Below, piece by piece: positions 3,245 through 47,340 of a stretch of DNA of 64,000 nt; positions within the stretch are counted from its first letter, which is position 1; each line of letters starts with the position of its first letter. The translations under genes were made by a program, and so were the position numbers. The notes under the pieces are model-generated. The model was given only the letters and a program-made list of their open reading frames with translations. It was not told where the DNA came from and ran no database searches. The stretch is from assembly GCF_053078305.1 (NCBI RefSeq), contig NZ_CP166879.1. One strand, given 5' to 3'.

Positions 3245-4378
3245 ATGAAAAGCAAAGTACTGGCACTTTTAATTCCTGCCCTGCTCGCCGCAGGTGCTGC
3301 ACATGCAGCCGAAGTTTATAATAAAGACGGCAACAAATTAGATCTGTATGGCAAAGTTGATGGCCTGCATTATTTTTCTGATAATTCAGCGAAAGATGGC
3401 GACCAGAGCTATGCGCGTCTGGGTTTTAAAGGCGAAACCCAAATTAACGATCAACTTACTGGCTACGGTCAATGGGAATACAATATTCAGGCAAACAACA
3501 CTGAATCTTCAAAAAACCAGTCATGGACCCGTCTGGCATTTGCCGGACTGAAATTTGCAGATTACGGTTCTTTCGATTACGGACGTAATTATGGCGTAAT
3601 GTACGACATCGAAGGCTGGACCGATATGCTGCCTGAATTTGGCGGTGACTCTTATACCAATGCAGACAACTTTATGACTGGTCGAGCCAATGGCGTCGCG
3701 ACTTATCGTAATACTGATTTCTTCGGTCTGGTAAATGGTCTGAACTTCGCGGTGCAGTATCAAGGTAACAACGAAGGAGCCAGTAATGGTCAGGAAGGCA
3801 CCAACAACGGACGTGATGTTCGCCATGAAAACGGTGACGGCTGGGGTCTTTCCACAACATATGATTTAGGCATGGGCTTTAGCGCTGGTGCGGCATACAC
3901 ATCTTCTGACCGCACCAATGACCAGGTTAACCATACTGCGGCGGGTGGTGATAAAGCAGACGCGTGGACTGCTGGGCTAAAATACGATGCTAACAATATT
4001 TACCTGGCAACCATGTATTCAGAAACGCGTAATATGACCCCGTTTGGCGACAGCGATTATGCTGTTGCAAACAAAACCCAGAACTTTGAAGTCACTGCAC
4101 AGTACCAGTTTGATTTTGGTCTGCGTCCGGCAGTCTCTTTCCTGATGTCTAAAGGCCGTGACCTGCACGCTGCCGGTGGTGCAGACAACCCGGCAGGTGT
4201 TGATGATAAAGATCTGGTTAAATACGCCGATGTTGGCGCGACTTACTATTTCAATAAAAACATGTCCACCTATGTTGACTATAAAATCAACCTGTTGGAT
4301 GAAGATGACAGTTTCTACGCTGCCAACGGCATCTCTACCGATGATATTGTCGCTTTAGGTCTGGTTTATCAGTTCTAA
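3245..4378 (+). CDS. ompN: Outer membrane porin N (OmpC/OmpF family), 377 aa
   Basis: Signal peptide [21 protein letters not shown] followed by [16 protein letters not shown], a typical general-porin N-terminus, and a C-terminal aromatic residue. Length matches the K-12 protein. Confidence 0.9.
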
Positions 4379-4386
4379 ATCCTCCT

Positions 4387-4411
4387 GCCCGCTGTTATGG
4401 CGGGCTTTTTC
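4387..4411 (+). terminator. Intrinsic terminator after ompN
   Basis: Hairpin gcccgc-tgttatg-gcgggc followed by ttttt. Confidence 0.7.
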
Positions 4412-4437
4412 TGCTTATTCTTCCTCCTTTGATCTAA

Positions 4438-4953
<516 letters not shown>

Positions 4954-4960
4954 CACTAAC

Positions 4961-4985
4961 GCCCGCACATTGCTGCGGGCTTTTT
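4961..4985 (+). terminator. Intrinsic terminator after uspF
   Basis: Hairpin gcccgca...tgcgggc followed by ttttt. Confidence 0.6.
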
Positions 4986-5128
4986 GATTCATTTCGCAAA
5001 TGTGCTGACATTTTCCCCTCTAATCCGTACCATACACGCCACAGTTTTTATATCAGATTTCTTATGCTGGGCGTTCCGGCATGACGCATACTCTTCTGAT
5101 GCCATATAACGAATTGAGTCGCTTTTAA

Positions 5129-6064
5129 ATGTCGCAAAATCAAGAAATTAGCAAGAAAGAACAATACAACCTGAACAAATTACAAAAACGTCTGCGTCGT
5201 AACGTGGGCGAAGCCATTGCTGACTTCAATATGATTGAAGAAGGCGATCGCATCATGGTTTGCCTCTCCGGGGGTAAAGACAGCTATACCATGCTGGAGA
5301 TTCTGCGCAATTTGCAGCAAAGCGCGCCAATCAATTTTTCGCTGGTGGCTGTTAACCTCGATCAAAAGCAACCGGGCTTCCCGGAACACGTTCTGCCCGA
5401 GTATCTTGAAAAGCTGGGCGTTGAGTACAAGATTGTTGAAGAGAACACTTACGGTATCGTGAAAGAGAAGATTCCAGAGGGCAAAACCACTTGCTCACTG
5501 TGTTCTCGGCTACGTCGCGGTATCCTTTATCGCACCGCAACGGAACTGGGGGCGACGAAGATCGCGTTGGGCCACCATCGTGACGATATCCTGCAAACGT
5601 TGTTCTTAAATATGTTCTACGGCGGCAAGATGAAAGGTATGCCTCCGAAACTGATGAGCGATGATGGCAAACATATCGTTATTCGTCCGCTGGCCTACTG
5701 CCGCGAGAAAGATATTCAGCGATTTGCCGATGCAAAAGCGTTCCCGATTATTCCGTGCAACCTGTGCGGTTCACAGCCTAACCTGCAACGTCAGGTGATT
5801 GCTGACATGTTGCGTGACTGGGATAAACGTTATCCAGGGCGTATCGAGACGATGTTCAGCGCGATGCAGAATGTGGTGCCGTCGCATCTGTGCGATACCA
5901 ACCTGTTCGATTTCAAAGGCATCACCCACGGTTCTGAAGTGGTTAACGGGGGTGATCTGGCGTTTGATCGCGAAGAGATCCCACTACAACCGGCGGGCTG
6001 GCAGCCAGAAGAAGATGAAAATCAGTTGGATGAGTTACGGCTGAATGTGGTTGAAGTGAAATAA
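5129..6064 (+). CDS. ttcA: tRNA 2-thiocytidine biosynthesis protein TtcA, 311 aa, uninterrupted
   Basis: PP-loop motif CLSGGKDS and conserved Cys pairs. Full length equals the K-12 protein. Confidence 0.9.
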
Positions 6065-6071
6065 CCAGGAT

Positions 6072-6146
6072 AGCGCCCGATGCGCAAGCGTATCGGGCTA
6101 CTCTTATGGAGGCCGGATAAGACGCGGCCAGCGTCGCATCCGGCAA
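6072..6146. repeat. REP (repetitive extragenic palindromic) elements, two units
   Basis: gcgcccgatgcg...gtatcgggc and gccggataagacgcggccagcgtcgcatccggc, a typical GCCGGATG-type REP palindrome, lying between the convergent ttcA and dbpA 3-prime ends. Confidence 0.6.
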
Positions 6147-9281: not shown

Positions 9282-10514
9282 ATGATTACGCACAACTTCA
9301 ATACCCTGGACTTACTCACCAGTCCTGTCTGGATCGTTTCGCCCTTTGAGGAACAGTTAATTTATGCCAATAGCGCGGCGCGACTGTTGATGCAAGACCT
9401 CACGTTTAGTCAGCTACGAACCGGTCCCTATTCCGTCTCCTCACAAAAAGAACTGCCGAAATACCTCTCCGATCTGCAAAACCAACACGATATTATCGAA
9501 ATCCTCACTGTTCAGCGTAAAGAAGAGGAAACAGCATTAAGCTGTCGGCTTGTTTTGCGAGAGCTGACAGAAACAGAACCGGTGATTATTTTCGAAGGTA
9601 TCGAAGCGCCGGCAACGCTGGGTTTAAAAGCCAGTCGCTCAGCAAATTATCAGCGCAAAAAACAAGGTTTTTATGCGCGCTTTTTTCTGACTAACTCTGC
9701 ACCAATGTTGTTGATTGACCCGTCACGAGATGGCCAAATCGTCGATGCTAACCTCGCCGCGCTCAATTTCTATGGTTATAACCATGAAACGATGTGCCAG
9801 AAACATACCTGGGAAATAAATATGCTCGGGCGTCGCGTCATGCCTATCATGCATGAAATTTCGCATTTACCCGGCGGTCATAAACCTTTGAATTTTGTTC
9901 ATAAACTGGCGGATGGATCTACTCGTCATGTGCAGACCTATGCCGGACCGATTGAAATTTATGGCGACAAGCTCATGTTATGTATTGTGCATGATATTAC
10001 TGAGCAAAAACGGCTGGAGGAGCAGCTGGAACATGCTGCTCACCATGACGCGATGACCGGATTACTGAATCGGCGACAGTTTTATCACATTACGGAACCA
10101 GGCCAAATGCAGCATCTCGCCATCGCTCAGGATTACAGCTTGTTGCTCATCGACACCGATCGTTTTAAACACATTAACGATCTCTATGGGCATTCTAAAG
10201 GTGATGAGGTGTTATGCGCCCTCGCCCGCACCCTCGAAAGTTGCGCTCGCAAAGGCGATTTGGTGTTTCGTTGGGGAGGCGAAGAGTTTGTCTTATTGCT
10301 ACCAAGAACCCCACTGGATACCGCGCTTTCGCTGGCTGAAACTATCCGCGTAAGCGTGGCAAAAGTGAGTATTTCGGGCTTACCACGCTTTACCGTCAGC
10401 ATTGGTGTGGCGCATCACGAAGGAAATGAAAGCATCGATGAACTGTTTAAACGCGTTGATGATGCTTTGTATCGGGCGAAAAATGATGGACGCAACCGCG
10501 TGCTGGCGGCATAA
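9282..10514 (+). CDS. dgcM: Diguanylate cyclase DgcM (YdaM), PAS-GGDEF, 410 aa
   Basis: GGEEF active-site motif (RWGGEEFVLLL). Start taken at MITHNFNTL to give the K-12 length; the track ORF from 9222 is an upstream extension. Confidence 0.85.
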   Translation: MITHNFNTLDLLTSPVWIVSPFEEQLIYANSAARLLMQDLTFSQLRTGPYSVSSQKELPKYLSDLQNQHDIIEILTVQRKEEETALSCRLVLRELTETEPVIIFEGIEAPATLGLKASRSANYQRKKQGFYARFFLTNSAPMLLIDPSRDGQIVDANLAALNFYGYNHETMCQKHTWEINMLGRRVMPIMHEISHLPGGHKPLNFVHKLADGSTRHVQTYAGPIEIYGDKLMLCIVHDITEQKRLEEQLEHAAHHDAMTGLLNRRQFYHITEPGQMQHLAIAQDYSLLLIDTDRFKHINDLYGHSKGDEVLCALARTLESCARKGDLVFRWGGEEFVLLLPRTPLDTALSLAETIRVSVAKVSISGLPRFTVSIGVAHHEGNESIDELFKRVDDALYRAKNDGRNRVLAA

Positions 10515-10534
10515 GCCGCGGATGCGTCTCGAGA

Positions 10535-11098
10535 TCAACGACTGCGCTTAGCGTGGCGCTCCCAGTTTTCTTGCTTCGCCTGCGCCGTTTTACGTAGTGC
10601 GACGTAACACGCCCCGCTGCCGCCATGATGCGGTAGCGCGGTGCAATATGCCTGAACATCATCAAATTCGGTCAGCCAGCGCGCCACATAGCTGCGGACA
10701 ATATTGGCATGCGATTTATCATCCCGCCCTTTACCATGAATAATCAGCACGTTACGCAAACCATCCGCCAGGGCTTGTTGAATAAAACTGAACACCATTT
10801 TGCGGCACTCTTCCACCGGCTGGCGCAAAAGATTCAGGCTCGCCTGTTGCGGATATTTACCACTGCGCAGCTTATCCAGCACCCCATGTTGCAACCCTTC
10901 TCGCCGAAACTCCAGCGGCTGACTTAGTGGGATAATGTCGAGAAATCCGGTAGTGAGGAAATTATCAAGCTGCAGCGTGTCGATACGCTGCGGCGCACGT
11001 TGGTTACGCGTTGGATGCCAGTGGACATCGGTAGCACGTTTCAGCGGCTGGACATCTTCCATGGCGTCAAGAAACAGCGATTTGTCGTCAAGGTTCAT
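10535..11098 (-). CDS. smrA: Smr-domain DNA endonuclease SmrA (YdaL), 187 aa
   Basis: Smr domain near the N-terminus (GKGRDDKSHANIVRSYVARWL). Length matches K-12. Confidence 0.85.
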   Translation of the reverse strand: MNLDDKSLFLDAMEDVQPLKRATDVHWHPTRNQRAPQRIDTLQLDNFLTTGFLDIIPLSQPLEFRREGLQHGVLDKLRSGKYPQQASLNLLRQPVEECRKMVFSFIQQALADGLRNVLIIHGKGRDDKSHANIVRSYVARWLTEFDDVQAYCTALPHHGGSGACYVALRKTAQAKQENWERHAKRSR

Positions 11099-11265
11099 GT
11101 TACATCCTCCCGCAATTAAGAGCGCGATATGATAACCAGACCGGGTCGGTCCAACAACGTATTACCCAAAATTCCAGTAATAAGTTCCAAATATTGCCGA
11201 TATTTTAAGCAAAATGCTTATGCATGATTATTCATTCACGATATTAATAATGTAACTTATATTTT

Positions 11266-11280
11266 CGTGAAATCTGTCAC
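11266..11280. promoter_or_regulatory. CRP-like site upstream of mcaS
   Basis: cGTGA-aatctg-TCACt resembles the CRP consensus TGTGA-N6-TCACA and sits about 50 bp upstream of the mcaS 5-prime end. Confidence 0.3.
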
Positions 11281-11325
11281 TGAAGAAAATTGGCAACTAA
11301 AGGTTAAAACCGTTATAACACAGTC

Positions 11326-11419
11326 ACCGGCGCAGAGGAGACAATGCCGGATTTAAGACGCGGATGCACTGCTGTGTGTACTGTAGAGTCTGGCGGATGT
11401 CGACAGACTCTATTTTTTT
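11326..11419 (+). ncRNA. mcaS: McaS (IsrA) small RNA
   Basis: ACCGGCGCAGAGGAGACAATGCCGGATTTAAGACGCGGATGCACTGCTGTGTGTACTGTAGAGTCTGGCGGATGTCGACAGACTCTATTTTTTT matches McaS as I recall it. The terminator hairpin and T7 run end 8 nt from the convergent abgR stop. Confidence 0.8.
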
Positions 11420-11427
11420 ATGCAGTT

Positions 11428-12336
11428 TTAACTTTGCAGATAGCCGCATTCTCGCCGGAATTGCGTGATTAATGACGCGGTCAGTGGTGTCTGGCGACTA
11501 TCACGCCGCTGAATCAAATAATAGGCCGCTTTCGGTAAAATTTCGCTAACCGGCAACATCACCAGCCCCTGTCCGTGCAAGGGATCGCAGCCCATTTCTT
11601 CAGGCAGTATGCTGAGAAAATCGCTTTTTGCCACCAGACTGATACAGGCTGAGAACGTCTCGCAGACTACACCGACCTGTGGCGTTTGCGCCTGATCGTC
11701 AAGCAATTCACTCAACTGTTTGTAGTAGCTGCCGTGTGGCGTCGGCATTGTCCAGCTGTAATCCAGTAACTGTTTGATCGAACGGGCACCAATGGCGGGG
11801 TGTCCCGGGCGGCAAAAGATCGCGAATTGCTTTTCCAGTAATTTCTCAAAAGTAAATTCGTGGTCGTACGGTCCCTGATAATAGGTATTGATGGTGAAAT
11901 CCAATTCTCCCTGACGCAATTCATTAATCATCGACACCAGTTGCCCTTCCATAATGCGTACTTTTACCTGCGGATGCTGCTGATGAAAACGAGATATGAC
12001 AGCTGGCATCAGACTGCGGGAAATACTGGCCCCCATGCCGATATTAATCTGCCCTGCCAGTTGCCCTTGTCGTTGGCGAATATCCTCTTGGGCTGCGCGC
12101 AGCTCTTCAAGAATAAGACTGGCGTGCTGATAAAAACTTTCACCGGCATCAGTTAACGTCACGCCTTTACTACGGCGAAAAAAGAGTTGCGCCGCTAACC
12201 CTTCTTCCAGCTCCTGAATAGATTTACTCAGTGCCGGTTGCGACATATTCAACATTCGGCTCGCTCCGCGAATGCTGCCCTGACGAGCCACTTCAACAAA
12301 AGCCCGAATTTGATGAATTTTTACCTGAAAAGCCAT
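11428..12336 (-). CDS. abgR: LysR-family transcriptional regulator AbgR, 302 aa
   Basis: N-terminal LysR HTH (IRGASRMLNMSQPALSKSIQELE). Divergent from abgA. Confidence 0.9.
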   Translation of the reverse strand: MAFQVKIHQIRAFVEVARQGSIRGASRMLNMSQPALSKSIQELEEGLAAQLFFRRSKGVTLTDAGESFYQHASLILEELRAAQEDIRQRQGQLAGQINIGMGASISRSLMPAVISRFHQQHPQVKVRIMEGQLVSMINELRQGELDFTINTYYQGPYDHEFTFEKLLEKQFAIFCRPGHPAIGARSIKQLLDYSWTMPTPHGSYYKQLSELLDDQAQTPQVGVVCETFSACISLVAKSDFLSILPEEMGCDPLHGQGLVMLPVSEILPKAAYYLIQRRDSRQTPLTASLITQFRRECGYLQS

Positions 12337-12511
12337 GACGCCACCGATAACCGTTATTTATCAGACCAAAGAAACTGGCATCTACTTTAATGCAGATGAT
12401 TGTGTCAGGGTAATTTATGAACGGTTAAAACTGTGAAAAATCAGTTAGTGATAAGTAAAAACTATCGCTACGTGAACCGGGTCACACTTTTTACTGATGA
12501 CGGGAAAGGTT

Positions 12512-13822
12512 ATGGAGTCTTTGAATCAATTTGTTAATTCGCTTGCCCCAAAATTATCGCACTGGCGACGTGATTTTCATCACTATGCAGAGTCTGGCTG
12601 GGTGGAATTCCGCACTGCCACCCTTGTTGCGGAAGAATTGCAGCAGCTCGGCTATTCACTGGCGCTGGGCCGCGAAGTAGTTAATGAAAGTAGCCGGATG
12701 GGACTACCTGATGAACTCACTCTACAACGCGAATTCGAGCGCGCTCGTCAACAGGGTGCGCTAGCACAATGGATTGCGGCTTTTGAAGGTGGTTTCACTG
12801 GTATCGTCGCCACCCTGGATACCGGTCGCCCCGGTCCGGTGATGGCTTTCCGTGTCGATATGGACGCGCTGGATCTCAGTGAAGAGCAGGATGTCAGCCA
12901 TCGCCCCTACCGCGACGGTTTTGCGTCATGTAACGCCGGAATGATGCATGCCTGTGGTCATGATGGGCATACCGCCATTGGGCTTGGGCTGGCGCATACC
13001 CTTAAACAGTTCGAGTCCGGACTACATGGCATCATCAAACTGATTTTTCAACCTGCAGAAGAAGGTACGCGTGGCGCGCGGGCGATGGTCGATGCAGGTG
13101 TAGTGGATGATGTTGATTATTTTACTGCCGTGCACATTGGCACTGGCGTACCTGCGGGCACCGTGGTGTGCGGCAGTGATAATTTTATGGCAACCACCAA
13201 ATTTGACGCGCACTTCACCGGGACCGCCGCTCACGCAGGCGCAAAACCAGAAGACGGTCACAATGCCTTGTTGGCGGCAGCACAAGCAACTCTTGCACTG
13301 CATGCAATCGCCCCGCACAGCGAAGGCGCTTCCAGAGTAAACGTGGGCGTTATGCAGGCAGGAAGCGGTCGTAATGTTGTTCCTGCCTCGGCGTTGCTGA
13401 AAGTGGAAACACGCGGGGCCAGCGACGTCATTAATCAATATGTTTTTGACCGTGCTCAGCAAGCGATTCAGGGCGCAGCAACCATGTATGGTGTCGGCGT
13501 TGAAACTCGTCTGATGGGTGCAGCTACCGCCAGTTCTCCTTCGCCGCAATGGGTCGCATGGTTGCAAAGTCAGGCGGCTCAGGTAGCGGGGGTCAATCAG
13601 GCCATTGAACGTGTTGAAGCGCCTGCGGGTTCCGAAGATGCCACATTAATGATGGCCCGCGTGCAGCAACATCAAGGGCAAGCCTCCTACATGGTGTTTG
13701 GCACACAGCTGGCGGCAGGTCATCACAACGAAAAATTCGATTTTGACGAGCAGGTTCTCGCTATTGCCGTCGAAACGCTGGCGCGCACCGCGCTCAATTT
13801 TCCCTGGACGCGAGGTATCTGA
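12512..13822 (+). CDS. abgA: p-Aminobenzoyl-glutamate hydrolase subunit A (M20 peptidase family), 436 aa
   Basis: M20 metallopeptidase motifs. Start at MESLNQ with GGGAAAGG upstream. The stop overlaps the abgB start (TGATG). Confidence 0.85.
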   Translation: MESLNQFVNSLAPKLSHWRRDFHHYAESGWVEFRTATLVAEELQQLGYSLALGREVVNESSRMGLPDELTLQREFERARQQGALAQWIAAFEGGFTGIVATLDTGRPGPVMAFRVDMDALDLSEEQDVSHRPYRDGFASCNAGMMHACGHDGHTAIGLGLAHTLKQFESGLHGIIKLIFQPAEEGTRGARAMVDAGVVDDVDYFTAVHIGTGVPAGTVVCGSDNFMATTKFDAHFTGTAAHAGAKPEDGHNALLAAAQATLALHAIAPHSEGASRVNVGVMQAGSGRNVVPASALLKVETRGASDVINQYVFDRAQQAIQGAATMYGVGVETRLMGAATASSPSPQWVAWLQSQAAQVAGVNQAIERVEAPAGSEDATLMMARVQQHQGQASYMVFGTQLAAGHHNEKFDFDEQVLAIAVETLARTALNFPWTRGI

Positions 13823-15267
13823 TGCAGGAAATCTATCGTTTTATCGACGATGCGATTGAAGCCGATCGCCAACGTTATACCGATATTGCCGATCAAATCT
13901 GGGATCATCCAGAAACACGTTTTGAAGAGTTCTGGTCAGCGGAGCATCTGGCTTCGGCGCTGGAATCAGCAGGCTTCACCGTTACCCGCAACGTAGGCAA
14001 TATCCCAAATGCCTTTATTGCTTCGTTTGGTCAAGGCAAACCGGTTATCGCCCTGCTGGGAGAATATGACGCCCTGGCAGGTTTAAGTCAGCAAGCTGGT
14101 TGCGCGCAACCTACATCCGTGACGCCCGGTGAGAATGGTCACGGTTGCGGACACAATTTGCTGGGAACCGCCGCCTTTGCCGCTGCAATAGCCGTCAAGA
14201 AATGGCTGGAACAATATGGGCAAGGCGGCACGGTGCGCTTTTATGGTTGTCCTGGCGAAGAAGGCGGCTCGGGTAAAACGTTCATGGTCCGCGAGGGGGT
14301 ATTTGATGATGTGGATGCGGCACTCACCTGGCACCCGGAAGCCTTTGCCGGTATGTTCAATACCCGTACGCTGGCAAACATTCAGGCATCATGGCGCTTT
14401 AAAGGGATCGCAGCACATGCCGCGAATTCCCCTCATTTGGGACGCAGCGCCCTTGATGCCGTAACGTTGATGACCACTGGCACCAACTTCCTCAACGAAC
14501 ATATTATTGAAAAAGCGCGCGTACACTATGCCATCACAAATAGTGGCGGGATCTCGCCCAACGTGGTCCAGGCGCAGGCAGAAGTGCTTTATCTTATCCG
14601 CGCCCCCGAAATGACCGACGTGCAGCATATTTATGATCGAGTCGCCAAAATCGCCGAAGGTGCGGCATTGATGACCGAAACCACGGTTGAATGCCGCTTC
14701 GACAAAGCCTGTTCCAGTTATCTCCCGAATCGCACCTTAGAAAATGCCATGTACCAGGCCCTATCCCATTTTGGTACCCCGGAATGGAACTCCGAAGAAC
14801 TGGCTTTTGCGAAACAAATTCAGGCTACGCTCACCCCCAACGATCGGCAAAACAGTCTGAATAATATCGCCGCAACCGGTGGCGAAAACGGCAAGGCTTT
14901 TGCACTACGTCATCGTGAAACGGTACTGGCCAATGAAGTCGCTCCATATGCCGCCACCGATAACGTGCTTGCGGCATCGACTGATGTCGGCGACGTCAGT
15001 TGGAAACTGCCTGTTGCTCAGTGTTTCAGCCCCTGTTTTGCCGTCGGTACACCGCTACATACGTGGCAACTGGTTAGCCAGGGGCGAACATCTATTGCTC
15101 ATAAAGGAATGCTGCTGGCGGCGAAAACTATGGCAGCAACCACACTCAATCTCTTCATTGATTCAGGGCTATTGCAAGAATGCCAACAAGAGCATCAGCA
15201 AGTTACGGACACGCAACCGTATCACTGCCCTATCTCGAAAAACGTGACACCGTCACCTTTAAAATAA
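13822..15267 (+). CDS. abgB: p-Aminobenzoyl-glutamate hydrolase subunit B (M20 family), 481 aa
   Basis: M20 family sequence. Translationally coupled to abgA. Confidence 0.9.
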   Translation: MQEIYRFIDDAIEADRQRYTDIADQIWDHPETRFEEFWSAEHLASALESAGFTVTRNVGNIPNAFIASFGQGKPVIALLGEYDALAGLSQQAGCAQPTSVTPGENGHGCGHNLLGTAAFAAAIAVKKWLEQYGQGGTVRFYGCPGEEGGSGKTFMVREGVFDDVDAALTWHPEAFAGMFNTRTLANIQASWRFKGIAAHAANSPHLGRSALDAVTLMTTGTNFLNEHIIEKARVHYAITNSGGISPNVVQAQAEVLYLIRAPEMTDVQHIYDRVAKIAEGAALMTETTVECRFDKACSSYLPNRTLENAMYQALSHFGTPEWNSEELAFAKQIQATLTPNDRQNSLNNIAATGGENGKAFALRHRETVLANEVAPYAATDNVLAASTDVGDVSWKLPVAQCFSPCFAVGTPLHTWQLVSQGRTSIAHKGMLLAAKTMAATTLNLFIDSGLLQECQQEHQQVTDTQPYHCPISKNVTPSPLK

Positions 15268-15303
15268 CAACAACAACGCAAACACAACAACCGAGGAATG
15301 CCC

Positions 15304-16830
15304 ATGAGTATGTCATCCATACCGTCGTCCTCCCAATCCGGGAAGCTCTATGGCTGGGTCGAAAGAATTGGTAACAAGGTTCCCCATCCTTTTTTGCTCT
15401 TTATCTATTTGATTATCGTACTCATGGTGACGACGGCAATTTTGTCGGCCTTTGGCGTCAGTGCGAAAAACCCGACCGATGGTACGCCGGTGGTGGTGAA
15501 AAACCTGCTCAGTGTGGAAGGATTACACTGGTTTTTACCCAATGTTATTAAAAACTTTAGCGGTTTTGCTCCACTTGGTGCGATCCTGGCGCTGGTTTTA
15601 GGTGCCGGTCTGGCGGAGCGCGTCGGCTTACTGCCAGCACTAATGGTTAAAATGGCATCGCATGTTAATGCCCGCTACGCCAGTTATATGGTGCTGTTTA
15701 TTGCTTTTTTCAGCCACATTTCTTCCGATGCGGCGTTAGTGATCATGCCACCGATGGGTGCGCTGATTTTTCTGGCGGTGGGCAGGCATCCAGTTGCAGG
15801 TTTACTGGCTGCCATTGCAGGCGTAGGTTGCGGCTTTACGGCTAATTTACTGATTGTCACAACCGACGTGTTGCTGTCGGGGATCAGCACGGAAGCGGCG
15901 GCTGCGTTCAATCCGCAAATGCACGTCAGTGTAATTGATAACTGGTATTTTATGGCCAGCTCCGTAGTCGTACTGACGATTGTTGGCGGCCTGATAACCG
16001 ACAAAATCATCGAGCCACGGTTAGGTCAATGGCAGGGAAACAGCGATGAGAAACTGCAGACATTGACCGAAAGTCAGCGTTTTGGTTTACGCATAGCAGG
16101 TGTCGTATCGCTACTTTTTATTGCTGCGATTGCGCTGATGGTGATCCCGGAAAACGGGATATTGCGCGATCCGATTAATCACACCGTGATGCCATCACCC
16201 TTTATTAAAGGTATCGTGCCACTGATCATTCTTTTTTTCTTTGTTGTCTCGCTGGCTTATGGCATCGCTACCCGCACAATTCGACGTCAGGCGGATTTAC
16301 CGCATTTAATGATTGAACCGATGAAAGAGATGGCGGGATTTATCGTGATGGTTTTTCCCCTCGCCCAGTTTGTCGCCATGTTTAACTGGAGCAACATGGG
16401 GAAATTCATCGCCGTGGGGCTGACCGATATACTGGAAAGTTCAGGGCTTAGCGGCATCCCGGCGTTTGTCGGTCTGGCGTTGCTTTCCTCTTTCTTATGC
16501 ATGTTTATCGCCAGCGGTTCCGCAATCTGGTCGATTCTGGCCCCCATTTTCGTACCAATGTTTATGCTACTTGGCTTTCACCCGGCATTTGCGCAAATCC
16601 TCTTTCGTATTGCCGACTCATCCGTATTGCCTTTAGCGCCAGTATCTCCTTTTGTTCCACTGTTTCTTGGATTCCTGCAACGCTACAAACCAGACGCGAA
16701 ACTGGGTACTTACTATTCGTTAGTCTTGCCCTATCCGCTTATCTTTTTGGTGGTATGGCTGCTGATGTTGCTGGCGTGGTATCTTGTTGGTCTGCCGATA
16801 GGTCCGGGGATTTACCCACGTTTGTCTTAA
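15304..16830 (+). CDS. abgT: p-Aminobenzoyl-glutamate transporter AbgT, 508 aa
   Basis: Polytopic membrane protein of the AbgT family. GAGGA Shine-Dalgarno precedes the ATG at 15304. Confidence 0.85.
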
Positions 16831-18454: not shown

Positions 18455-19405
18455 ATGGCTATGTATCAGAACATGCTCGTTGTTATCGATCCTAACCAGG
18501 ACGACCAACCAGCATTGCGGCGAGCTGTTTATTTACATCAACGGATTGGTGGCAAAATTAAAGCCTTTTTGCCGATCTATGACTTCTCATACGAAATGAC
18601 CACCCTGCTCTCCCCGGACGAACGTACCGCTATGCGTCAGGGCGTCATCAGCCAGCGTACAGCCTGGATCCACGAGCAGGCAAAATATTATCTCAATGCT
18701 GGCGTTCCCATTGAAATTAAAGTGGTCTGGCATAACCGTCCTTTCGAAGCCATCATTCAGGAAGTGATCAGCGGCGGGCACGATTTGGTGCTAAAAATGG
18801 CGCACCAACATGACCGTCTGGAAGCGGTGATTTTTACGCCAACGGACTGGCATCTGTTACGCAAATGCCCAAGCCCGGTGTGGATGGTGAAAGACCAGCC
18901 GTGGCCGGAAGGAGGTAAGGCGCTGGTGGCGGTGAATCTCGCCAGTGAAGAGCCGTATCATAATGCGCTCAATGAAAAACTGGTCAAAGAGACGATCGAA
19001 CTGGCAGAACAAGTCAACCATACCGAAGTTCATCTGGTTGGCGCTTACCCAGTAACGCCAATTAATATCGCGATTGAACTGCCGGAATTTGATCCGAGCG
19101 TTTATAACGATGCCATTCGTGGGCAACATTTGCTGGCAATGAAAGCTCTGCGGCAGAAATTCGGCATTAATGAAAACATGACGCACGTAGAAAAAGGTCT
19201 GCCAGAAGAGGTGATTCCTGATTTGGCGGAGCACTTACAGGCGGGGATTGTGGTTCTGGGCACGGTAGGACGCACCGGTATTTCAGCAGCATTCCTCGGC
19301 AACACGGCGGAACAGGTGATTGATCATCTTCGCTGCGATCTGTTGGTCATTAAACCTGACCAGTATCAGACACCCGTTGAACTGGATGACGAAGAAGACG
19401 ATTAA
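18455..19405 (+). CDS. uspE: Universal stress protein E (tandem Usp domains), 316 aa
   Basis: Two Usp domains. AGGAGA Shine-Dalgarno precedes the ATG at 18455 ([10 protein letters not shown]). Confidence 0.85.
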
Positions 19406-19454
19406 CGACTCTTCAATAACTGACAAGGCCCGAGTTATCGGGCCTATTTTTTAC

Positions 19455-19712
19455 TTACTGCTCTTCGCCGCCAAGGAAATAAATTCCCAACGGGATTGCC
19501 AGCAACACAGTAAAGACCAGGCTATAAACAAAAATCATCGATGACTGAATCACATACATTGATGTCGTCCACTCAGACAGCGGAATATTGTACTGTTCTA
19601 TAACGCCGCCGATAGTCGCGCGAGTCACAACCGACGCCGCAATAATGAAAACCGCCAACAAACCAAAGAGAAATTTCTTCCCTTTCGCTGACTTCAGTTT
19701 CGCCATAATCAT
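19455..19712 (-). CDS. ynaJ: Small inner-membrane protein YnaJ, 85 aa
   Basis: Two predicted transmembrane helices. Length matches K-12. Confidence 0.8.
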   Translation of the reverse strand: MIMAKLKSAKGKKFLFGLLAVFIIAASVVTRATIGGVIEQYNIPLSEWTTSMYVIQSSMIFVYSLVFTVLLAIPLGIYFLGGEEQ

Positions 19713-19955
19713 GATGTAATCCTTGTGCAGACAAATTTCTTGTTACCTAAACGTAACAATACCATGACATTTCACCGTTGTCTGCTCTGAAAACCTCACC
19801 TCTTAGCTGGATTTACAATCAACGCATTGATTAGTTAGCTAATGTTGCTACTTCCTTCCCTGACTATTGATGATCTGAATGAATTGTCGCGGTAAAATAG
19901 CCCCGCCAGGGGTTTCCGGCATGACGACAATTATCTGGAGGAGCCTGATAAAACA

Positions 19956-20987
19956 ATGATCGCTGAACTGTTTACAAATAATGCGCTTAATCTGGTCATT
20001 ATTTTCGGTAGCTGCGCAGCATTGATTCTGATGAGCTTTTGGTTTCGCCGCGGAAATCGTAAAAGAAAAGGCTTTTTATTCCATGCGGTGCAATTTTTAA
20101 TCTACACCATAATTATCAGTGCTGTTGGTAGCATTATTAATTATGTTATAGAAAACTATAAACTCAAATTTATCACCCCAGGCGTTATCGATTTTATCTG
20201 TACGTCCCTGATTGCGGTTATTCTGACGATTAAGCTATTTTTGCTGATTAATCAGTTTGAAAAACAGCAGATTAAAAAAGGTCGCGATATCACCAGTGCG
20301 CGGATTATGTCGCGCATTATCAAAATCACCATTATTGTGGTGCTTGTTCTGCTTTATGGCGAACATTTCGGCATGAGCCTTTCTGGCTTGCTGACCTTTG
20401 GTGGTATTGGTGGTCTGGCTGTCGGTATGGCCGGTAAAGATATTCTGAGTAATTTCTTTTCCGGGATCATGCTCTATTTCGACCGTCCTTTCAGTATTGG
20501 CGACTGGATCCGTTCACCGGACAGAAATATCGAAGGTACAGTAGCGGAAATTGGCTGGCGAATTACCAAAATTACGACCTTTGATAATCGTCCATTGTAC
20601 GTACCGAACTCGCTGTTTTCGTCGATCAGCGTAGAAAACCCAGGACGAATGACCAACCGCCGCATTACCACGACCATTGGTTTACGTTATGAGGATGCGG
20701 CAAAAGTGGGCGTTATTGTCGAAGCCGTACGTGAGATGCTGAAAAATCACCCGGCCATCGACCAGCGACAAACCTTACTGGTTTATTTCAACCAGTTTGC
20801 TGACTCGTCATTGAATATTATGGTTTATTGCTTTACCAAAACCACGGTATGGGCTGAGTGGCTTGCTGCACAGCAAGACGTTTATTTGAAGATTATCGAT
20901 ATTGTACAGTCACACGGCGCGGACTTTGCCTTCCCCAGCCAGACGCTGTATATGGATAACATTACACCGTCGGAACAGGGTCGCTAA
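19956..20987 (+). CDS. ynaI: MscS-family mechanosensitive channel YnaI, 343 aa
   Basis: N-terminal transmembrane helices followed by an MscS beta domain. GGAGG Shine-Dalgarno upstream. Confidence 0.85.
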
Positions 20988-33304: not shown

Positions 33305-33358
33305 TGCTGTCCTGTGCTGCTCTGAAGACCAGAAAAAAAATCATTCGTAAGGATATGA

Positions 33359-33386
33359 ATGTGGGGGCCAGGCCATTGATTATCAA
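33359..33386 (-). promoter_or_regulatory. Candidate sigma32 (heat-shock) promoter for ycjX-ycjF
   Basis: Minus strand reads TTGATAA, a 12-nt spacer, then CCCCCACAT, resembling the sigma32 consensus CTTGAAA-N13-15-CCCCATNT. It lies about 55 bp upstream of the ycjX ATG. Confidence 0.4.
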
Positions 33387-33459
33387 CTGCCCGTGTTGTC
33401 ATCGACGGGCGAACTCCATAAGATGTGCAGCATTCACGTTCGGACGGAGTTCCTGACCT

Positions 33460-34458
33460 ATGTCCCCTACTATTTATGATATTGCCAGGGTTGCAGGCGT
33501 ATCAAAATCCACCGTATCACGCGTGCTGAATAAGCAAACCAATATCTCCCCGGAAGCGCGCGAAAAAGTGTTACGGGCCATTGAAGAATTACAGTATCAA
33601 CCAAACAAGCTGGCCCGCGCGCTGACCTCTTCGGGTTTTGATGCCATTATGGTGATTTCTACCCGTTCGACCAAAACTACGGCGGGTAATCCGTTTTTCT
33701 CTGAAGTTTTGCATGCCATCACCGCCAAAGCTGAAGAAGAAGGTTTCGACGTGATATTGCAGACGTCGCACAACCTGGCAGAAGACTTACAAAAATGTGA
33801 AAGCAAAATTAAGCAGAAAATGATTAAAGGCATAATTATGCTAAGCTCACCTGCTGATGAATCGTTTTTTGCGCAACTCGATAAATACGATATTCCGGTG
33901 GTGGTGATTGGCAAAGTTGAAGGTCAATATGCCCATGTTTATTCTGTCGATACCGATAATTTTGGCGACAGCATTGCGTTGACCGATGCGTTAATTGAAA
34001 GTGGACATCAAAATATTGCCTGTCTGCATGCACCGCTTGATGTCCATGTTTCAGTGGATCGGGTAAATGGTTATAAGCAGAGTCTGGAAGATCATAATAT
34101 TGCAGTGCGTGATGAATGGATTGTTGATGGCGGTTATACCCATGAAACAGCACTGCAAGCAGCACGGCAATTATTAAGTCAGTCACCGTTGCCTGAGGCA
34201 GTGTTTGCCACTGACAGCCTGAAATTAATGAGCATTTATCGTGCAGCGGCAGAGAAAAACATTGCTATTCCGCATCAGTTAGCGGTGGTGGGTTATAGTA
34301 ATGAAACGCTGTCGTTTATATTAACGCCTGCACCGGGCGGCATCGATGTTCCGACGCAGGAGTTAGGTCAACAAAGCTGCGAGTTATTATTCCGCTTAAT
34401 TTCTGGAAAACCGTCACCACAGAATATTACCGTTGCCACGCATATGTCGTTGAAATAA
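33460..34458 (+). CDS. ycjW: LacI-family transcriptional regulator YcjW, 332 aa
   Basis: N-terminal LacI HTH ([20 protein letters not shown]) and a periplasmic-binding-protein-like effector domain. Confidence 0.85.
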
Positions 34459-34464
34459 ATGTAT

Positions 34465-34494
34465 GCCGGATTTGGCGCTCGCGCCGCATCCGGC
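34465..34494. repeat. REP element between ycjW and ompG
   Basis: gccggatttggcgctcgcgccgcatccggc, a REP-type palindrome. Confidence 0.5.
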
Positions 34495-34508
34495 AATTTA
34501 GCCCATTA

Positions 34509-35414
34509 TCAGAACGAGTAATTTACGCCGACACCTGCATAATGGAATTTATCACTGTCTCCTTCGTCGTGATCCTGCCACTCAAACGCGTATTCCAGCG
34601 AAACGGAAAGACCATTCTGGAAATCATAACCGTAAAATAAACCCACACGGTTAAAATCATGGCCTTCACGTTCAATATCATCCTGCCAGTCCCAGTTACT
34701 CCAGCGATCCAGCCCAATGCGCGTATACGGCGTCACCGAGTGGTTGCCGAGCGTCAGCGGCAAATAGGCGCGAATTTCTTGCGTGGAAAACTCACCGTTA
34801 TTGCGGCTGTCGTCCATATTGAAGCCGCGCTCGAGATAATAGTTCACTCGCAAAGCAACCGTTTCGTTGAAGGTATATTGCAGACCTGTTTCCGTTTCGA
34901 CACGGGTATCAGCGTAACCGGTCGTGTTCAAATCGTTGGCAAATTTATACATCGACAACCAACCGTTGAAACGTAAATCGTCAGTCAGTTTCACATCCCA
35001 GTCTGGCGCGATTTTCCAGCGCTGCATATTCGCCGTGTCTTTGCCCGGTTCATCAACGTAGTGATAACCATAATTACGGAAACCGCCGGTCAGGCCGAAA
35101 CTGAAATCATCGCTTTCGAGGAACTGATAATGCACCTCCAGCTCCGGGCGATCAAACCACGTTCCACGTTTACCCGCGCTATAATCAACCGGCCCTTCCT
35201 GATAATAGGCCAGAGAAATTCTCCACGGCCCGTTGGCGGCATTAAAATAGACAGAAGGCTCCGCCAGTCCATCCATATCTTCGCCATAACCCTCGACGTT
35301 TTCTATTTCGTACATCGCGCCGATATTAAAGTGCCAGTCGTTCTTTTCCTCGGCCTGTGCGCAGGCCATTCCCGCACACATCACCAGTGCGGTACAGGGT
35401 AATAACTTTTTCAT
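34509..35414 (-). CDS. ompG: Outer membrane porin OmpG, 301 aa
   Basis: Signal peptide, beta-barrel alternating pattern, C-terminal ...NYSF. Confidence 0.9.
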   Translation of the reverse strand: MKKLLPCTALVMCAGMACAQAEEKNDWHFNIGAMYEIENVEGYGEDMDGLAEPSVYFNAANGPWRISLAYYQEGPVDYSAGKRGTWFDRPELEVHYQFLESDDFSFGLTGGFRNYGYHYVDEPGKDTANMQRWKIAPDWDVKLTDDLRFNGWLSMYKFANDLNTTGYADTRVETETGLQYTFNETVALRVNYYLERGFNMDDSRNNGEFSTQEIRAYLPLTLGNHSVTPYTRIGLDRWSNWDWQDDIEREGHDFNRVGLFYGYDFQNGLSVSLEYAFEWQDHDEGDSDKFHYAGVGVNYSF

Positions 35415-35458
35415 TATTGTTCCTTGTATTATCCTGGGGGAATGCCTTCCCCCTGTAT

Positions 35459-36541
35459 TTAGCGAATTGCTATTTCCGTTTCTGCATCAAAGAAATGACA
35501 TTTAGTCATATCAAAATGAATAGTGATATTTTCTCCTGCATGATAATCATTTAACGCACCAGCACGGACCACTAACTCGTGCCCCCCAACCGTGGTGTAG
35601 AGCATAAATTCCGCACCGGTTAATTCTGCCACGCTAATTTTGGCGGAAATGTTATTTTCCTCTTGCGCGTCCGGATGAATATCTTCCGGGCGTATTCCCA
35701 TCACGATGGGCTTATGCAAACTTTCCTGTGTTTTCAGAACCGCTAATTTCTCTTCGGGAATGGTTAATTTAAGCGTTTCCGTAACGAATTTATTGCCATC
35801 GATCGTGCCGCGAATAAAATTCATCGCCGGTGATCCAATAAATCCGGCAACAAACATATTCGCGGGTTGGTTATAAACGGTTTTCGGCGCACCTACTTGC
35901 TGAACAATCCCGTCTTTCATAATCACAATCCGCGTCGCCATGGTCATCGCTTCGGTCTGATCGTGGGTCACGTAGATCATGGTGGTGTTCAGTTTCTGAT
36001 GCAGCTTGCTGATCTCTGCGCGCATTTGCACGCGCAGCTTGGCATCAAGGTTAGAGAGCGGTTCATCCATTAAAAACACGCCCGCTTCGCGTACAATCGC
36101 CCGCCCGAGCGCCACACGCTGACGTTGCCCGCCGGAAAGCGCGCCCGGCTTGCGTTTCAGGTACTCACGCAGGCCGAGAATTTGCGCCGCCCAGTTCACC
36201 CGCTCATCAATCACCTCTTTGGCGATTTTTTGCATCTTCAGGCCAAACGCCATGTTGTCGTAAACCGTCATATGCGGATACAACGCGTAGTTCTGGAACA
36301 CCATCGCGATATTGCGTGCTTTAGCTGGAACGTCATTCATTCGTTTGCCGTCGATCAACAGATCGCCGCCGCTGATCTCCTCAAGCCCGGCAATCATGCG
36401 CAGGGTGGTCGATTTACCGCAGCCCGACGGGCCGACAAATACAATGAACTCTTTATCGGCAATTTCCAGGTTGAAGTCCTTCACCACATGCACCTGGTTA
36501 TCGTAGATTTTTTGAATATGTTGTAACGAAAGCTGAGCCAT
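35459..36541 (-). CDS. ycjV: ABC transporter ATP-binding protein (MalK-like), intact 360 aa
   Basis: Walker A GPSGCGKST, ABC signature LSGGQ, Walker B VFLMDEPLSNLD. The reading frame is uninterrupted. Confidence 0.85.
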   Translation of the reverse strand: MAQLSLQHIQKIYDNQVHVVKDFNLEIADKEFIVFVGPSGCGKSTTLRMIAGLEEISGGDLLIDGKRMNDVPAKARNIAMVFQNYALYPHMTVYDNMAFGLKMQKIAKEVIDERVNWAAQILGLREYLKRKPGALSGGQRQRVALGRAIVREAGVFLMDEPLSNLDAKLRVQMRAEISKLHQKLNTTMIYVTHDQTEAMTMATRIVIMKDGIVQQVGAPKTVYNQPANMFVAGFIGSPAMNFIRGTIDGNKFVTETLKLTIPEEKLAVLKTQESLHKPIVMGIRPEDIHPDAQEENNISAKISVAELTGAEFMLYTTVGGHELVVRAGALNDYHAGENITIHFDMTKCHFFDAETEIAIR

Positions 36542-36554
36542 GTTAATTCCTTTG

Positions 36555-37214
36555 CTATACGTTTTGCCAGAAGGCCGATAACCGCGACCAGGTCAGGGAG
36601 TCCGTTGAAGGCAATAGTAATTGCGCCCCGGTTAAGCCCGCGCCGATCCCCACCGAGCGCATACCGCTGGCGTTAATGGCGTCAATGCCCGCCTGCGCAT
36701 CTTCAATGCCGATACATGCCTGCGGCGGCACGCCCAGCCCGGCACAAGCAGCGAGAAAGATTTCCGGATCCGGTTTCGAGTTTTTAAGTTGGGAAGCATC
36801 CGCGCAGAAGGTGAAAAACTCGCGCAGCTCCAGCGCCGCTAAAATCGTCGGCGCATTGAGGGAGACAGAAGCCAGCCCTACCGCGATCTGCTGTGCGCGG
36901 AGATCTGCCAGCAAAGGCCGGATCCCCGGCAGAACGGCATTAACCGTCAGTTCGCGCAGTGAGTGGACGTAGAGCAGATTTTTGCGATACGCCAGTTGCG
37001 CCCGCTCCTGCGAGTTAAAGTCGCCCTCTTTGCCCCCGTATTGCAGAATGCGCCGCAGAGACTCATCGCGGCTAATCCCTTTTAGGGATTCGTTAAACTG
37101 CGCATCAATGCTGATGCCAATTTCAGCGGCAATCTGCTGCCACGCCTGGAAATGCAGATGCGCGGTATCGGTGATTACACCATCCAGATCGAAAATTACC
37201 CCTTGCAGTTTCAT
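36555..37214 (-). CDS. ycjU: Beta-phosphoglucomutase (HAD superfamily), 219 aa
   Basis: HAD motif [10 protein letters not shown]. Confidence 0.85.
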
Positions 37215-39478
37215 TCATCCTCCTGATGCGTGGTAGCGGTCCCATTGAAGGGCAAAATAAAATCACCCAAACAGAAAACAGATTCTTCAGCCACGGATAT
37301 AAGCTGACCGTTCAAACGCAGTGAAACGGGCGCAGAAGTTCGAATCGCAATACGCTGCGCGTCGAGAGTGACCTGTAATTCGCAGCCCTGCCAGAACAGA
37401 GGGAAAGACAACTGTTGCCACTGCTCCGGTAACGCCGGATTGAGATGCAATTCACCGTCACGCACGCTCACCCCGGCAAAACCCTGAATCGCCCCCAGCC
37501 AGATAGCGCCAGTTGCGGCAGCATGGATACCATCATCACAACTATGCGGATCAGCACCAAGATCGATTTCAGTCCCCTCGCGCCAGAACTGATAACTTTG
37601 GGTCAGCAGGCCACAGCGTGCGGCAACAATGCCGTGGATTGCTTTACTTAATGACGAGTCGTGAATAGTGCGCGGTTCATAAAATTGCAGATTGGCAAGA
37701 CACGATGCCGCTGAGAACTGCTCCGGCAGCATGTAATTGAGCATCACCACATCAGCTTGTTTGAGGATCTGCATCTCGTTCACTTCTGCGCGTGAATAAT
37801 CCAGCAGTATGGTTTGCTTCCCCGCCGCCGCTTTGTATTTCGCCAGATTAATCGCCGGCTTAGCCATAAACGAATCATCCTGCGGCAAAACGCCGTCGGG
37901 CTGAATTTCTGGCATCCATAGCTCTTTGAGGAACATTTCGGCGCGATGGATAAACGCATCGTCGCTACAGCCGAACTGGCGGGCAATATTCAGCGCCTGT
38001 TGAACGTTGTAGCGGGCCATATAGCTGGTGTATGCATTATTATTGACATGTTCGGTATATTCGTCTGGCCCAATAACATCATGAATTTCCAGACGATCGT
38101 TAACTCTCACCGCGCGGCTAATCCAGAACTTTGCCGTCTCCAGAAGTAGCGCCATGCCTTCATGAGCAATGAAACTTTCATCCCCCGTTGTCTGCCAGTA
38201 TTGAATAACCGCCCAGGCGATATCGGCCACCAGATGATGTTCCGCCTGCGCCGAAGCCACTTTTTGCCGCAGCCCGGTGCGAATGTTAATGGCGGCAAAT
38301 TCCGGCGTCTCTTCTTCGCCGCTGCGCGCGCTTTCCCACGGAAATAGCGCGCCCTGCCAGCCGTTGCGTCGCGCTTTCTCCTGCGCGCCTGGCAAGTTGT
38401 GCCAGCGATAACGCAGTAAACTTCGGGCAACCGTCGGATCGCTAAGCAGATGAAACGGTAGCAAAAATACTTCTGTATCCCAGAAAACGTGGCCTTTGTA
38501 GCCTTCGCCGGTTAAGCCTTTCGCCGCAATGCTGCTGCGCTCGTCGTGAGCAGGCGTCATGATGCGCAGATGATAAAGCGCATAATCTAACGCTTGCTGA
38601 TCGTGCTCATCGCCGCCATTTACCGTGATACGACGTTTCTGCCACCATTGACGCCAGTTTTCTGTTGATGCAGCAAGAAGTTGGTCGTAACTCTGCTGCG
38701 CGCACATTTCAAGCTGGCGAAGCGACGCGCTGCCCCACTCGTCTAAAACGGCTTGCCTGTCATCCCGCCAGTCGATCCACACCAGTTTTTGCAACGTCAC
38801 TGTCTCGCCTGCATGAAGCTGCGCACTGGTATGTTGCAGCAAACGGCGCTCTTTGGCGGTATAGCATTGCTGCACATCACCGCTCACCTTACAGCAACAG
38901 TTGATGGCCACATCACTGCGTCCATCCTGGGTGGTGTAGATCCCCTGCATCAGATGCTGACCAAACACCCGCACCTGGGTTTCGTCGAGATGTTGGCGAC
39001 CGTGGTTGGTTTGCGTGGCGTCGATACCTGTTGAAATCAGCACTGACGCGTCGGCGTCCAGTGGCGTAATAGTGATTTCCAGCGCAATGAGCGGCAGTTG
39101 GTCTGCCGAAACAAAGCGACGGCTGGCGATGGTGTAACCTGCGCCGTTGCTGGTACGCCAGACAACGTTGCGGCGTAATTCGCCACTGGCAAAGTCAAGC
39201 TCACGCTGCCAGGCTTCGTGGGATAACGAGAAAACCTCACCATTTATGGCAATCTCCATCCCCAAGATATCAGGCAGGTTCACCAGTTCGTTGATTTCAC
39301 CTTTTCCCGCCCGATGATACAGCCCCGCCAGATACATCCCTCGCGTCTGGCGCGTGTAATCTTCTTCATGGCTGGCGCGAAGCCCAAGATAGCCGTTCCC
39401 CTGCGCCATCAGCGAAGCATACTTGTTCAGGGTATGCTGGCTGAAATGGGGTTCTGATAACGTTACTGGCCTGGTCAT
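37211..39478 (-). CDS. ycjT: GH65 glycoside phosphorylase (kojibiose phosphorylase), 755 aa
   Basis: Size and family-typical sequence. Overlaps ycjU and ycjS by 4 nt each. Confidence 0.85.
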
Positions 39479-40530
39479 AATTCCACACGCGTCCCTGTTT
39501 CTGCGGATTGATACAACGCCGCCACCAGTTGCTGGATGATGTACCCCTGCTCGGCGTCGGCTATCATCACGGGCTTACCCTGTACGTGATTGATAAAGGC
39601 TTCCATGCTGCGCAAATGGCGGTTGTCGTCTGCCATTTCCCGTTGCATCAGCGTCATTAACTCACCGTTGTTATCGGTATAGATATGTGCCGGAAACAGC
39701 GTCGCCCCTGCTTTATCGCCACAAAAGCTGACGTTCATAATCGACTGTTCGCGGATGTTGAGTGCAAATGACGTTTCCAGCCACAGAATGCCGCCGTTAT
39801 GAAATTCAATGGTGCCAAACAACGAATCTTCGACACTGTAAGTTGCCGGGTCCCACTCGCCAAACTGACCGCAGCTCTTTTGCGTGCCGATCTTTTGAAA
39901 ACTATGCGCATTCACGCTTTTCACCGCCGGAAAGCCCAGCACATACATCGCCGCATCCAGCATATGAATACCGATGTCGATCAGTGGGCCACCACCTTGC
40001 AGTTCTTTATTGGTAAAGACACCCCAGCCGGGAACGCCGCAGCGACGCAGGGCGCGGGCGGTGGTAACGTAAATCTCTCCCAAAACGCCGTTGGTCACCT
40101 GTTCACGCAGCTGTTGCGTATCGAGCGCAAAACGATGGTGAAAGTCGTAGGCCAGCACCTTGCCCTGTTTGCGCGCGGTATCGCACATTTCCCGCGCCTG
40201 TTCTGGCGTCATGGCGGGCGGTTTTTCGCACATCACATGGCAGCCCGCTTCAAGCGCCATCAGGGTATGTTCGTAATGAAAACGGTTAGGTGAGCAGACG
40301 CTAACCACATCAGGTTTCACCGCCAGCAGCATGGCCTGCGGATCGTCCCACACGGATGCATTCCCGTATTTTTCTGCCAGCGCCTGCGCCTGGGAAAGGC
40401 GGCTGTCACAGACAGCCACCAGTTCCAGATCGTTGCGGGTGCAGTAGTACGAAGCATGAACCTTATCCGCCACCTGGCCTGCGCCTATTATCGCGACACG
40501 CAGCGGAGAGCTTGTCATTGCACTTTTCAC
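39475..40530 (-). CDS. ycjS: Gfo/Idh/MocA-family NAD(P)-dependent sugar oxidoreductase, 351 aa
   Basis: N-terminal Rossmann motif VAIIGAGQV. Confidence 0.85.
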   Translation of the reverse strand: MKSAMTSSPLRVAIIGAGQVADKVHASYYCTRNDLELVAVCDSRLSQAQALAEKYGNASVWDDPQAMLLAVKPDVVSVCSPNRFHYEHTLMALEAGCHVMCEKPPAMTPEQAREMCDTARKQGKVLAYDFHHRFALDTQQLREQVTNGVLGEIYVTTARALRRCGVPGWGVFTNKELQGGGPLIDIGIHMLDAAMYVLGFPAVKSVNAHSFQKIGTQKSCGQFGEWDPATYSVEDSLFGTIEFHNGGILWLETSFALNIREQSIMNVSFCGDKAGATLFPAHIYTDNNGELMTLMQREMADDNRHLRSMEAFINHVQGKPVMIADAEQGYIIQQLVAALYQSAETGTRVEL

Positions 40531-40539
40531 AAAGACCTC

Positions 40540-41328: not shown

Positions 41329-41345
41329 TTTTTCATTCCTTTGAA

Positions 41346-42398: not shown

Positions 42399-42428
42399 GT
42401 AAAACTCCTTGTAAAGAAACTGGCCGCT

Positions 42429-44139: not shown

Positions 44140-44159
44140 TGCGGATTCCTGTCCTGGGT

Positions 44160-45452: not shown

Positions 45453-45466
45453 GAAATGTTCCTTTT

Positions 45467-47146: not shown

Positions 47147-47317
47147 GTTGCCTTTCCGTGGTAGCGGTCCCATGAAACGAGAGACTACTCCGCAGAAAAT
47201 AAACTGTCAATTGAGCACAAGGGTTTTAGTCACGCTGGAAATCATTTTTTACCAGGGAAAAAGCGTATTTGTGAGCTGACGCAAATAATCTATAGGGATG
47301 TAAATAAGGTGTGACAG

Positions 47318-47340
47318 AAAAAAACGGCGCATAAGCGCCG
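47318..47340 (-). terminator. Intrinsic terminator after pspE
   Basis: Minus strand reads hairpin cggcgc-ttat-gcgccg followed by U7. Confidence 0.5.

Follow-up and report, generated by a model that had tools for sequence, protein, structure and literature searches.

The 243-bp region that separates the divergent ynaJ and ynaI genes in the DNA under study (a stretch of 64,000 nucleotides, here called the window) is, with a probability of about 96%, an intact ancestral divergent promoter region, in which an IS5 element was gained, at a TTAG tetranucleotide, by the K-12 lineage alone. The presence of IS5 between ynaI and ynaJ in K-12, and hence of an empty counterpart, is already known. According to the scheme proposed here, IS5F, with its insH4 gene, would have inserted in the K-12 lineage at TTAG 19835-19838 with duplication of the 4-bp target, and the window strain would never have received IS5, so that its spacer would correspond to the unoccupied site. 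At the ynaJ/ynaI locus, the unusual genome is then that of the K-12 reference rather than that of the window strain, and comparisons made against K-12 will flag here a 1.2-kb 'deletion' that is really a K-12 insertion.

The intergenic region and its genes

The two genes, the region between them and the target tetranucleotide are placed as follows.

19455-19712, minus strand: ynaJ coding sequence, a DUF2534 small membrane protein of 85 aa (open reading frame; annotated in matching genomes)
19713-19955, no strand: divergent ynaJ/ynaI intergenic region of 243 bp, unoccupied IS5 site
19835-19838, no strand: TTAG, the IS5 target, single in the window, with a copy at either end of IS5 in K-12
19956-20987, plus strand: ynaI coding sequence, an MscS-family low-conductance mechanosensitive channel of 343 aa (open reading frame)

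YnaJ is 100% identical to its K-12 counterpart (tblastn) and YnaI 99.7% identical, and the MG1655 annotation gives the same gene lengths for both ynaJ and ynaI. The gene order around the interval (ogt-fnr-uspE-ynaJ / ynaI-mppA-pgrR) is that of K-12, on the opposite strand, and the flanking kilobases are 98.9-99.3% identical to those of K-12, which corresponds to a divergence of approximately 1%. The complete genome that best matches the window is 99.2% identical to it over 25 kb.

The open reading frame coordinates set the start codons of ynaJ and ynaI exactly 243 bp apart, confirming the length given in the preliminary description, which had also reported a region free of transposases and of inverted repeats. 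The absence of a transposase was borne out, in that no transposase-like open reading frame was found in 19713-19955, where the longest frame spans 31 aa, and a search of the whole 64-kb window with K-12 IS5F (blastn) returned chance matches only, of at most 19 nt. With respect to inverted repeats, the statement holds for those of the IS type, since neither IS5 terminal inverted repeats nor a transposase remnant were found within 19713-19955, but not for shorter ones: palindromes are present at 19740-19759, 19817-19832 and 19835-19842, together with four 8-nt inverted pairs. Neither strand of 19350-20100 matched any Rfam covariance model at E <= 1.

Some features of the surroundings may be mentioned here. 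The convergent uspE and ynaJ genes are separated by an 8-bp GC-rich hairpin at 19426-19445 with flanking A/T runs; it is the ynaJ-uspE bidirectional terminator, which has served as a model in single-molecule work on RNA polymerase collisions (bioRxiv 10.1101/2022.10.23.513370). At about 4500-6100 of the window, uspF adjoins ttcA, as in strain 14EC033; therefore, the Rac prophage, which lies next to ttcA in K-12, is absent, being a second K-12-specific mobile element that is missing from the window. Over the 843 bp that include the interval, strain 14EC033 shows no difference from the window (100% identity). It lacks window positions 9426-16761 (approx. 7.3 kb, with an IS1 in their place between zntB/ynaN and ogt) and 33318-47337 (approx. 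14 kb between ycjX and pspE).

The IS5F element of K-12 and its target

In MG1655 (NC_000913.3), IS5F extends from 1396044 to 1397238 (1195 bp), carries insH4 (b1331) and is flanked by ynaI (b1330) on one side and by ynaJ (b1332) on the other. The preliminary description had placed such a copy here in K-12, and K-12, when examined for the lack of an IS at this position, does carry IS5F. The element has the properties of an IS5, namely a length of approximately 1.2 kb, terminal inverted repeats of about 16 bp (GGAAGGTGCGAATAAG and CTTGTTCGCACCTTCC at its ends; 3545-4739 of the retrieved K-12 locus, L001, 1195 bp), a transposase gene and a 4-bp duplication, and it is bounded by GGAAGGTGCGAA.../...TTCGCACCTTCC, with TTAG on each side. 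The IS5 transposase is of the DDE type. The ynaI/ynaJ element has been listed as copy 4 among eleven K-12 copies that were studied one by one (PMC11677980), and a BW25113 mutant from which this copy is precisely deleted was constructed in that work.

K-12 genomes split the megablast match of window 19413-20255 at query positions 423-426. By direct alignment with K-12, as the preliminary description had proposed for locating the target site, the K-12 sequence to the left of IS5 was found to end at window position 19838 and that to the right to begin at 19835. The two flanks overlap by 4 bp at 19835-19838 and, therefore, the target duplication is TTAG. When IS5 and one TTAG were removed in silico from the K-12 spacer, the resulting sequence equalled that of the window at 243 of 243 positions. 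The tetranucleotide agrees with the IS5 target consensus (YTAR / C-W-A-R, PMC11677980) and falls within the palindrome TTAGCTAA (19835-19842); including it, the interval has five YTAR sites. Measured to the start codons, IS5 inserted at a distance of 122 nt from ynaJ and 117 nt from ynaI, and in K-12 the insH4 transposase gene is co-directional with ynaJ, towards which it points.

Distribution of the empty and occupied states

The region is matched (megablast) in 5422 of 5426 complete E. coli genomes. In 5055 of the 5426 (approx. 93%), at least 80% of the 843-bp query is found in one place, a count of contiguous matches that tolerates insertions below about 920 bp, as in one genome with IS1 (H34). 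In this latter genome (NZ_OZ039848.1), an IS1 family transposase lies within the query-matching region and ynaI is annotated in pieces. The junctions that IS5 forms with its K-12 flanks were found in 353 complete E. coli genomes on the ynaI side and in 346 on the ynaJ side. The carriers of the ynaI-side junction that were inspected by name (60 of the 353) were all K-12 laboratory derivatives or K-12-like, and carriers include MG1655, W3110-type strains, DH5alpha, DH1, C600, J53 and NCM3722. The region is uninterrupted in BL21(DE3), O157:H7 EDL933, Nissle 1917 and JJ1886, and approximately 14 genomes belong neither to the contiguous class nor to that with a K-12 junction.

Outside E. coli, sampling of one genome per species among other Escherichia, Citrobacter and Salmonella (the taxa being E. 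albertii, E. whittamii, the cryptic clades, Citrobacter, and Salmonella enterica subsp. arizonae and diarizonae) yielded 25 loci, all of them free of IS elements, with ynaJ and ynaI divergent and 234-249 bp between the two genes. Next to the distant YnaI homologues of Yersinia, Proteus, Providencia and others, ynaJ is not adjacent. Because of this distribution over E. coli and the related genera, the empty site is identified as the ancestral state and IS5 as an insertion of the K-12 lineage.

The same empty site would result if the strain had once carried IS5 here and lost it by precise excision with restoration of a single TTAG, a process that has been documented for IS5 in one case (PMC11677980) and that would leave a site looking the same as one that was never occupied. 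Such a history is, however, most improbable by taking into account that the empty state is common to some 93% of the complete E. coli genomes and to all of the sampled related species, that the occupied one was seen, among the matches listed and the 60 of 353 named, in K-12-type genomes only, and that the window differs from K-12 by about 1% over the kilobases on either side and contains no IS5 in its 64 kb; on grounds of parsimony, a site that IS5 never entered is strongly preferred. There is likewise hardly any room for an assembly artefact, by which a repeated IS5 copy would have been collapsed or skipped in the source assembly. Although short-read assemblies often fail at IS elements, the usual result of a skipped IS is a contig break, not a continuous sequence in which exactly one target copy is left, and the junction found here equals base for base that of thousands of closed genomes. 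An ancestral site that never received the element is, therefore, the reading adopted in what follows.

The K-12 insertion is also known for its structural consequences. In W3110 stocks, the ynaI/ynaJ IS5 recombines with a second IS5 to the left of ogt with deletion of ynaJ-uspE-fnr; losses of fnr have been described for MG1655 stocks as well (PMC2072959). Such IS5-mediated deletions are consistent with the seven more junctions that were counted on the ynaI side (353) than on the ynaJ side (346). The window strain, having no IS5 copy, is without the recombination substrate for these recurrent events. In CY34 (NZ_CM181225.1, 852-3122), a K-12-like urine isolate, a truncated ttcA is directly joined to the ynaI-adjacent IS5, the IS5-adjacent deletion taking ynaJ, uspE, fnr, ogt, the abg genes and all that follows up to dbpA. 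Some K-12 stocks also have an IS5 ahead of fnr, an element on which Sawers reportedly published in 2005.

Predicted core promoters

Conservation was evaluated by aligning 26 spacers (Escherichia, Citrobacter and Salmonella), and combined with a relaxed promoter scan, leading to the following assignments.

19756-19764, minus strand: predicted ynaJ extended -10, TGgTATTGT (relaxed scan; conservation)
19779-19784, minus strand: predicted ynaJ -35, CAGACA (relaxed scan, 17-nt spacer to the -10; 98% mean identity)
19870-19875, plus strand: possible ynaI -35, weak, ATGATC (relaxed scan)
19893-19898, plus strand: predicted ynaI -10, TAAAAT (relaxed scan; 97% mean identity across genera)
19901-19912, plus strand: small GC hairpin, CCCC-GCCA-GGGG, immediately 3' of the ynaI -10

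The conserved blocks suggest the presence of two back-to-back sigma-70-type core promoters. The top-scoring promoter of the relaxed scan is CAGACA-17-TGgTATTGT upstream of ynaJ. The positions of its -35 element (TGTCTG on the plus strand, 19779-19784) have a mean identity of 0.98 across the 26 sequences, and those of the -10 hexamer and of its TG (ACAATA, 19756-19761, and CA, 19763-19764) are invariant in 26 of 26, which puts the predicted ynaJ transcription start at about 19747-19750 (minus strand). On the other side, the predicted ynaI -10 sits inside the near-invariant block GTAAAATA and is preceded by the conserved ATTGATGATCTGA at 19866-19878, which offers a weak -35 only. The ynaI start would be near 19905 (19904-19907), approximately 50 nt before the start codon, with a GGAGGAG ribosome-binding site at 19937-19943 downstream of it. 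The two core promoters would thus be approximately 110-150 bp apart with a fast-evolving centre between them: mean identity drops to 0.44 at 19790-19834 and to 0.39 at the TTAG target.

A strict scan found no promoter in the interval, its output consisting of the uspE/ynaJ terminator and of a weak terminator-like site on the minus strand at 19904-19921; the ynaJ and ynaI promoter assignments are, therefore, predictions based on consensus matching and conservation. In the literature that was searched, no mapped transcription starts were found for ynaJ or ynaI; the evidence on regulation that it offers is indirect, in that ynaI mRNA responds to overexpression of EvgA/YdeO and a CRP SELEX study names ynaJ as a predicted target. 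On the minus strand, the hairpin region (19901-19921) is weakly terminator-like, its T-run being the reverse complement of the ynaI -10. A role of the ynaI leader as a structured element was considered and rejected, as the fold of its stem-loop was not significant with respect to shuffled sequences (z = -1.6) and the folds calculated species by species gave different small hairpins after the ynaI -10 in many of the sequences and none in some.

Palindromes and candidate operators

Besides the predicted promoter elements, the interval contains three symmetrical sequences of possible regulatory interest.

19740-19759, no strand: operator-like TTGTTAC-N6-GTAACAA, overlapping the predicted ynaJ -10 and start
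19817-19832, no strand: perfect palindrome AATCAAcgcaTTGATT, beside the IS5 target, in Escherichia only
19835-19842, no strand: palindrome TTAGCTAA, containing the TTAG target

Overlap with the -10 and the start site is the usual position of a repressor operator. In the ynaJ-side element, 24 of the 26 sequences share GTTAC (19742-19746), the exceptions being E. albertii (TTTAC) and C. gillenii (GTCAC); the block AACAATACCATGACA (19755-19769) is also conserved, five of the 26 departing from it by a single base each, and AACAATA is conserved across genera. The right arm differs among genera (GTAAC, CTAAC, GCAAC, ATAAC), and the palindrome is, therefore, not a strict one. At the position that aligns with the central palindrome AATCAAcgcaTTGATT, C. 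braakii (L014) has a different one, GCGCTATTT-N5-AAATAGCGC, which is also found in a locus labelled as a Raoultella metagenome-assembled genome (L011) that is identical to that of C. braakii, and which recurs in imperfect or partial versions in the other Citrobacter-type loci. The central palindrome has the form AATCAA-N4-TTGATT in Escherichia and GCGCTATTT-N5-AAATAGCGC in Citrobacter.

A tentative proposal, which we regard as rather doubtful, is that GTTAC...AACAATACCATGACA might be the operator of a regulator new to ynaJ, and that the central palindromes might be lineage-specific sites shared by both promoters, with the K-12 IS5 uncoupling the Escherichia one from ynaI. Known regulators were compared with the palindromes through their consensus sites, which are TGTGA-N6-TCACA for CRP, TTGAT-N4-ATCAA for FNR, ATGTTA-N4-TAACAT for GntR/IdnR and TGTAAA-N6-TTTACA for the TyrR box. 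None of the four was taken up. CRP was discarded for a misfit in the spacing, despite the inclusion of ynaJ among the targets predicted by SELEX; the Escherichia palindrome is an inside-out version (ATCAA-N4-TTGAT) of an FNR site; the spacing is also wrong for GntR/IdnR, and a TyrR box of the right geometry, which agrees at 8 of 12 positions, was not accepted without supporting evidence.

Consequences of the insertion in K-12

With the assignments above, the distance from the predicted start back to IS5 in K-12 is approximately 86 bp for ynaJ and approximately 70 bp for ynaI, the element being upstream of both. Because it lies in the poorly conserved centre and outside the predicted elements, K-12 probably keeps both core promoters. 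By landing in the centre, IS5 would move the two promoters 1.2 kb apart and displace any upstream elements. The palindrome AATCAAcgcaTTGATT remains in K-12 on the ynaJ side of IS5, at a distance of 1.2 kb from ynaI. The 3' region of IS5 is curved and binds IHF (PMC11677980); from the orientation of the element, it would face ynaJ.

The preliminary description had concluded that native regulation of ynaI and ynaJ is preserved in this strain. This is right for the layout, which is the ancestral one, common to most E. coli and to the related genera; as a statement on expression it is inferred from the sequence, and the difference from K-12 regulation that it suggests is probably less marked than the wording conveys, as IS5 inserted outside the predicted core promoters of both genes, which K-12 still has. 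A real regulatory effect of the presence or absence of IS5, such that expression of ynaI and/or ynaJ would differ substantially from that of K-12, seems to us possible but unlikely. It could come about through the 3' end of IS5, which is curved and has an IHF site, through read-through from the transposase gene into ynaJ, or through the separation of the palindrome from ynaI; IS5 is known to activate or modulate adjacent promoters, as at bgl, fucAO, glpFK and flhDC (cited in PMC11677980), and both the direction of the K-12 transposase gene and the distance now found between the palindrome and ynaI would fit. The position of the insertion point with respect to both predicted core promoters argues against it, as do the ynaI mRNA of K-12, which is readily detected, well expressed and osmotically responsive (PMC3508906), and the resident ins5A promoter, which has been described as extremely weak (PMC11677980). 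No comparison of ynaI/ynaJ expression with and without IS5 was found in the literature that was searched. Since the K-12 expression data on ynaI and ynaJ come with IS5 approximately 70-90 bp upstream of both predicted starts, they should be carried over to wild strains with some caution.

Comparison with known systems

The closest term of comparison for the interval is the IS5F locus of K-12 itself, which is the same locus with identical flanks, the exact TTAG target being present in the window; the window differs in being without the 1195-bp element and its terminal repeats, and in having one TTAG instead of two. The arrangement also resembles that of compact divergent sigma-70 promoter regions of enterobacteria, with two predicted core promoters within approximately 240 bp, conserved -10/-35 blocks and a variable centre. 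With the other K-12-specific IS5 polymorphisms, which alter neighbouring genes (activation of bglGFB, fucAO, glpFK and flhDC; the element upstream of fnr), the ynaI/ynaJ site shares an intergenic AT-rich YTAR/CWAR target, the element family and the location of the target in a divergent or regulatory region (PMC11677980). It is set apart from them in that the documented consequence of the ynaI/ynaJ copy is a structural one rather than an expression phenotype.
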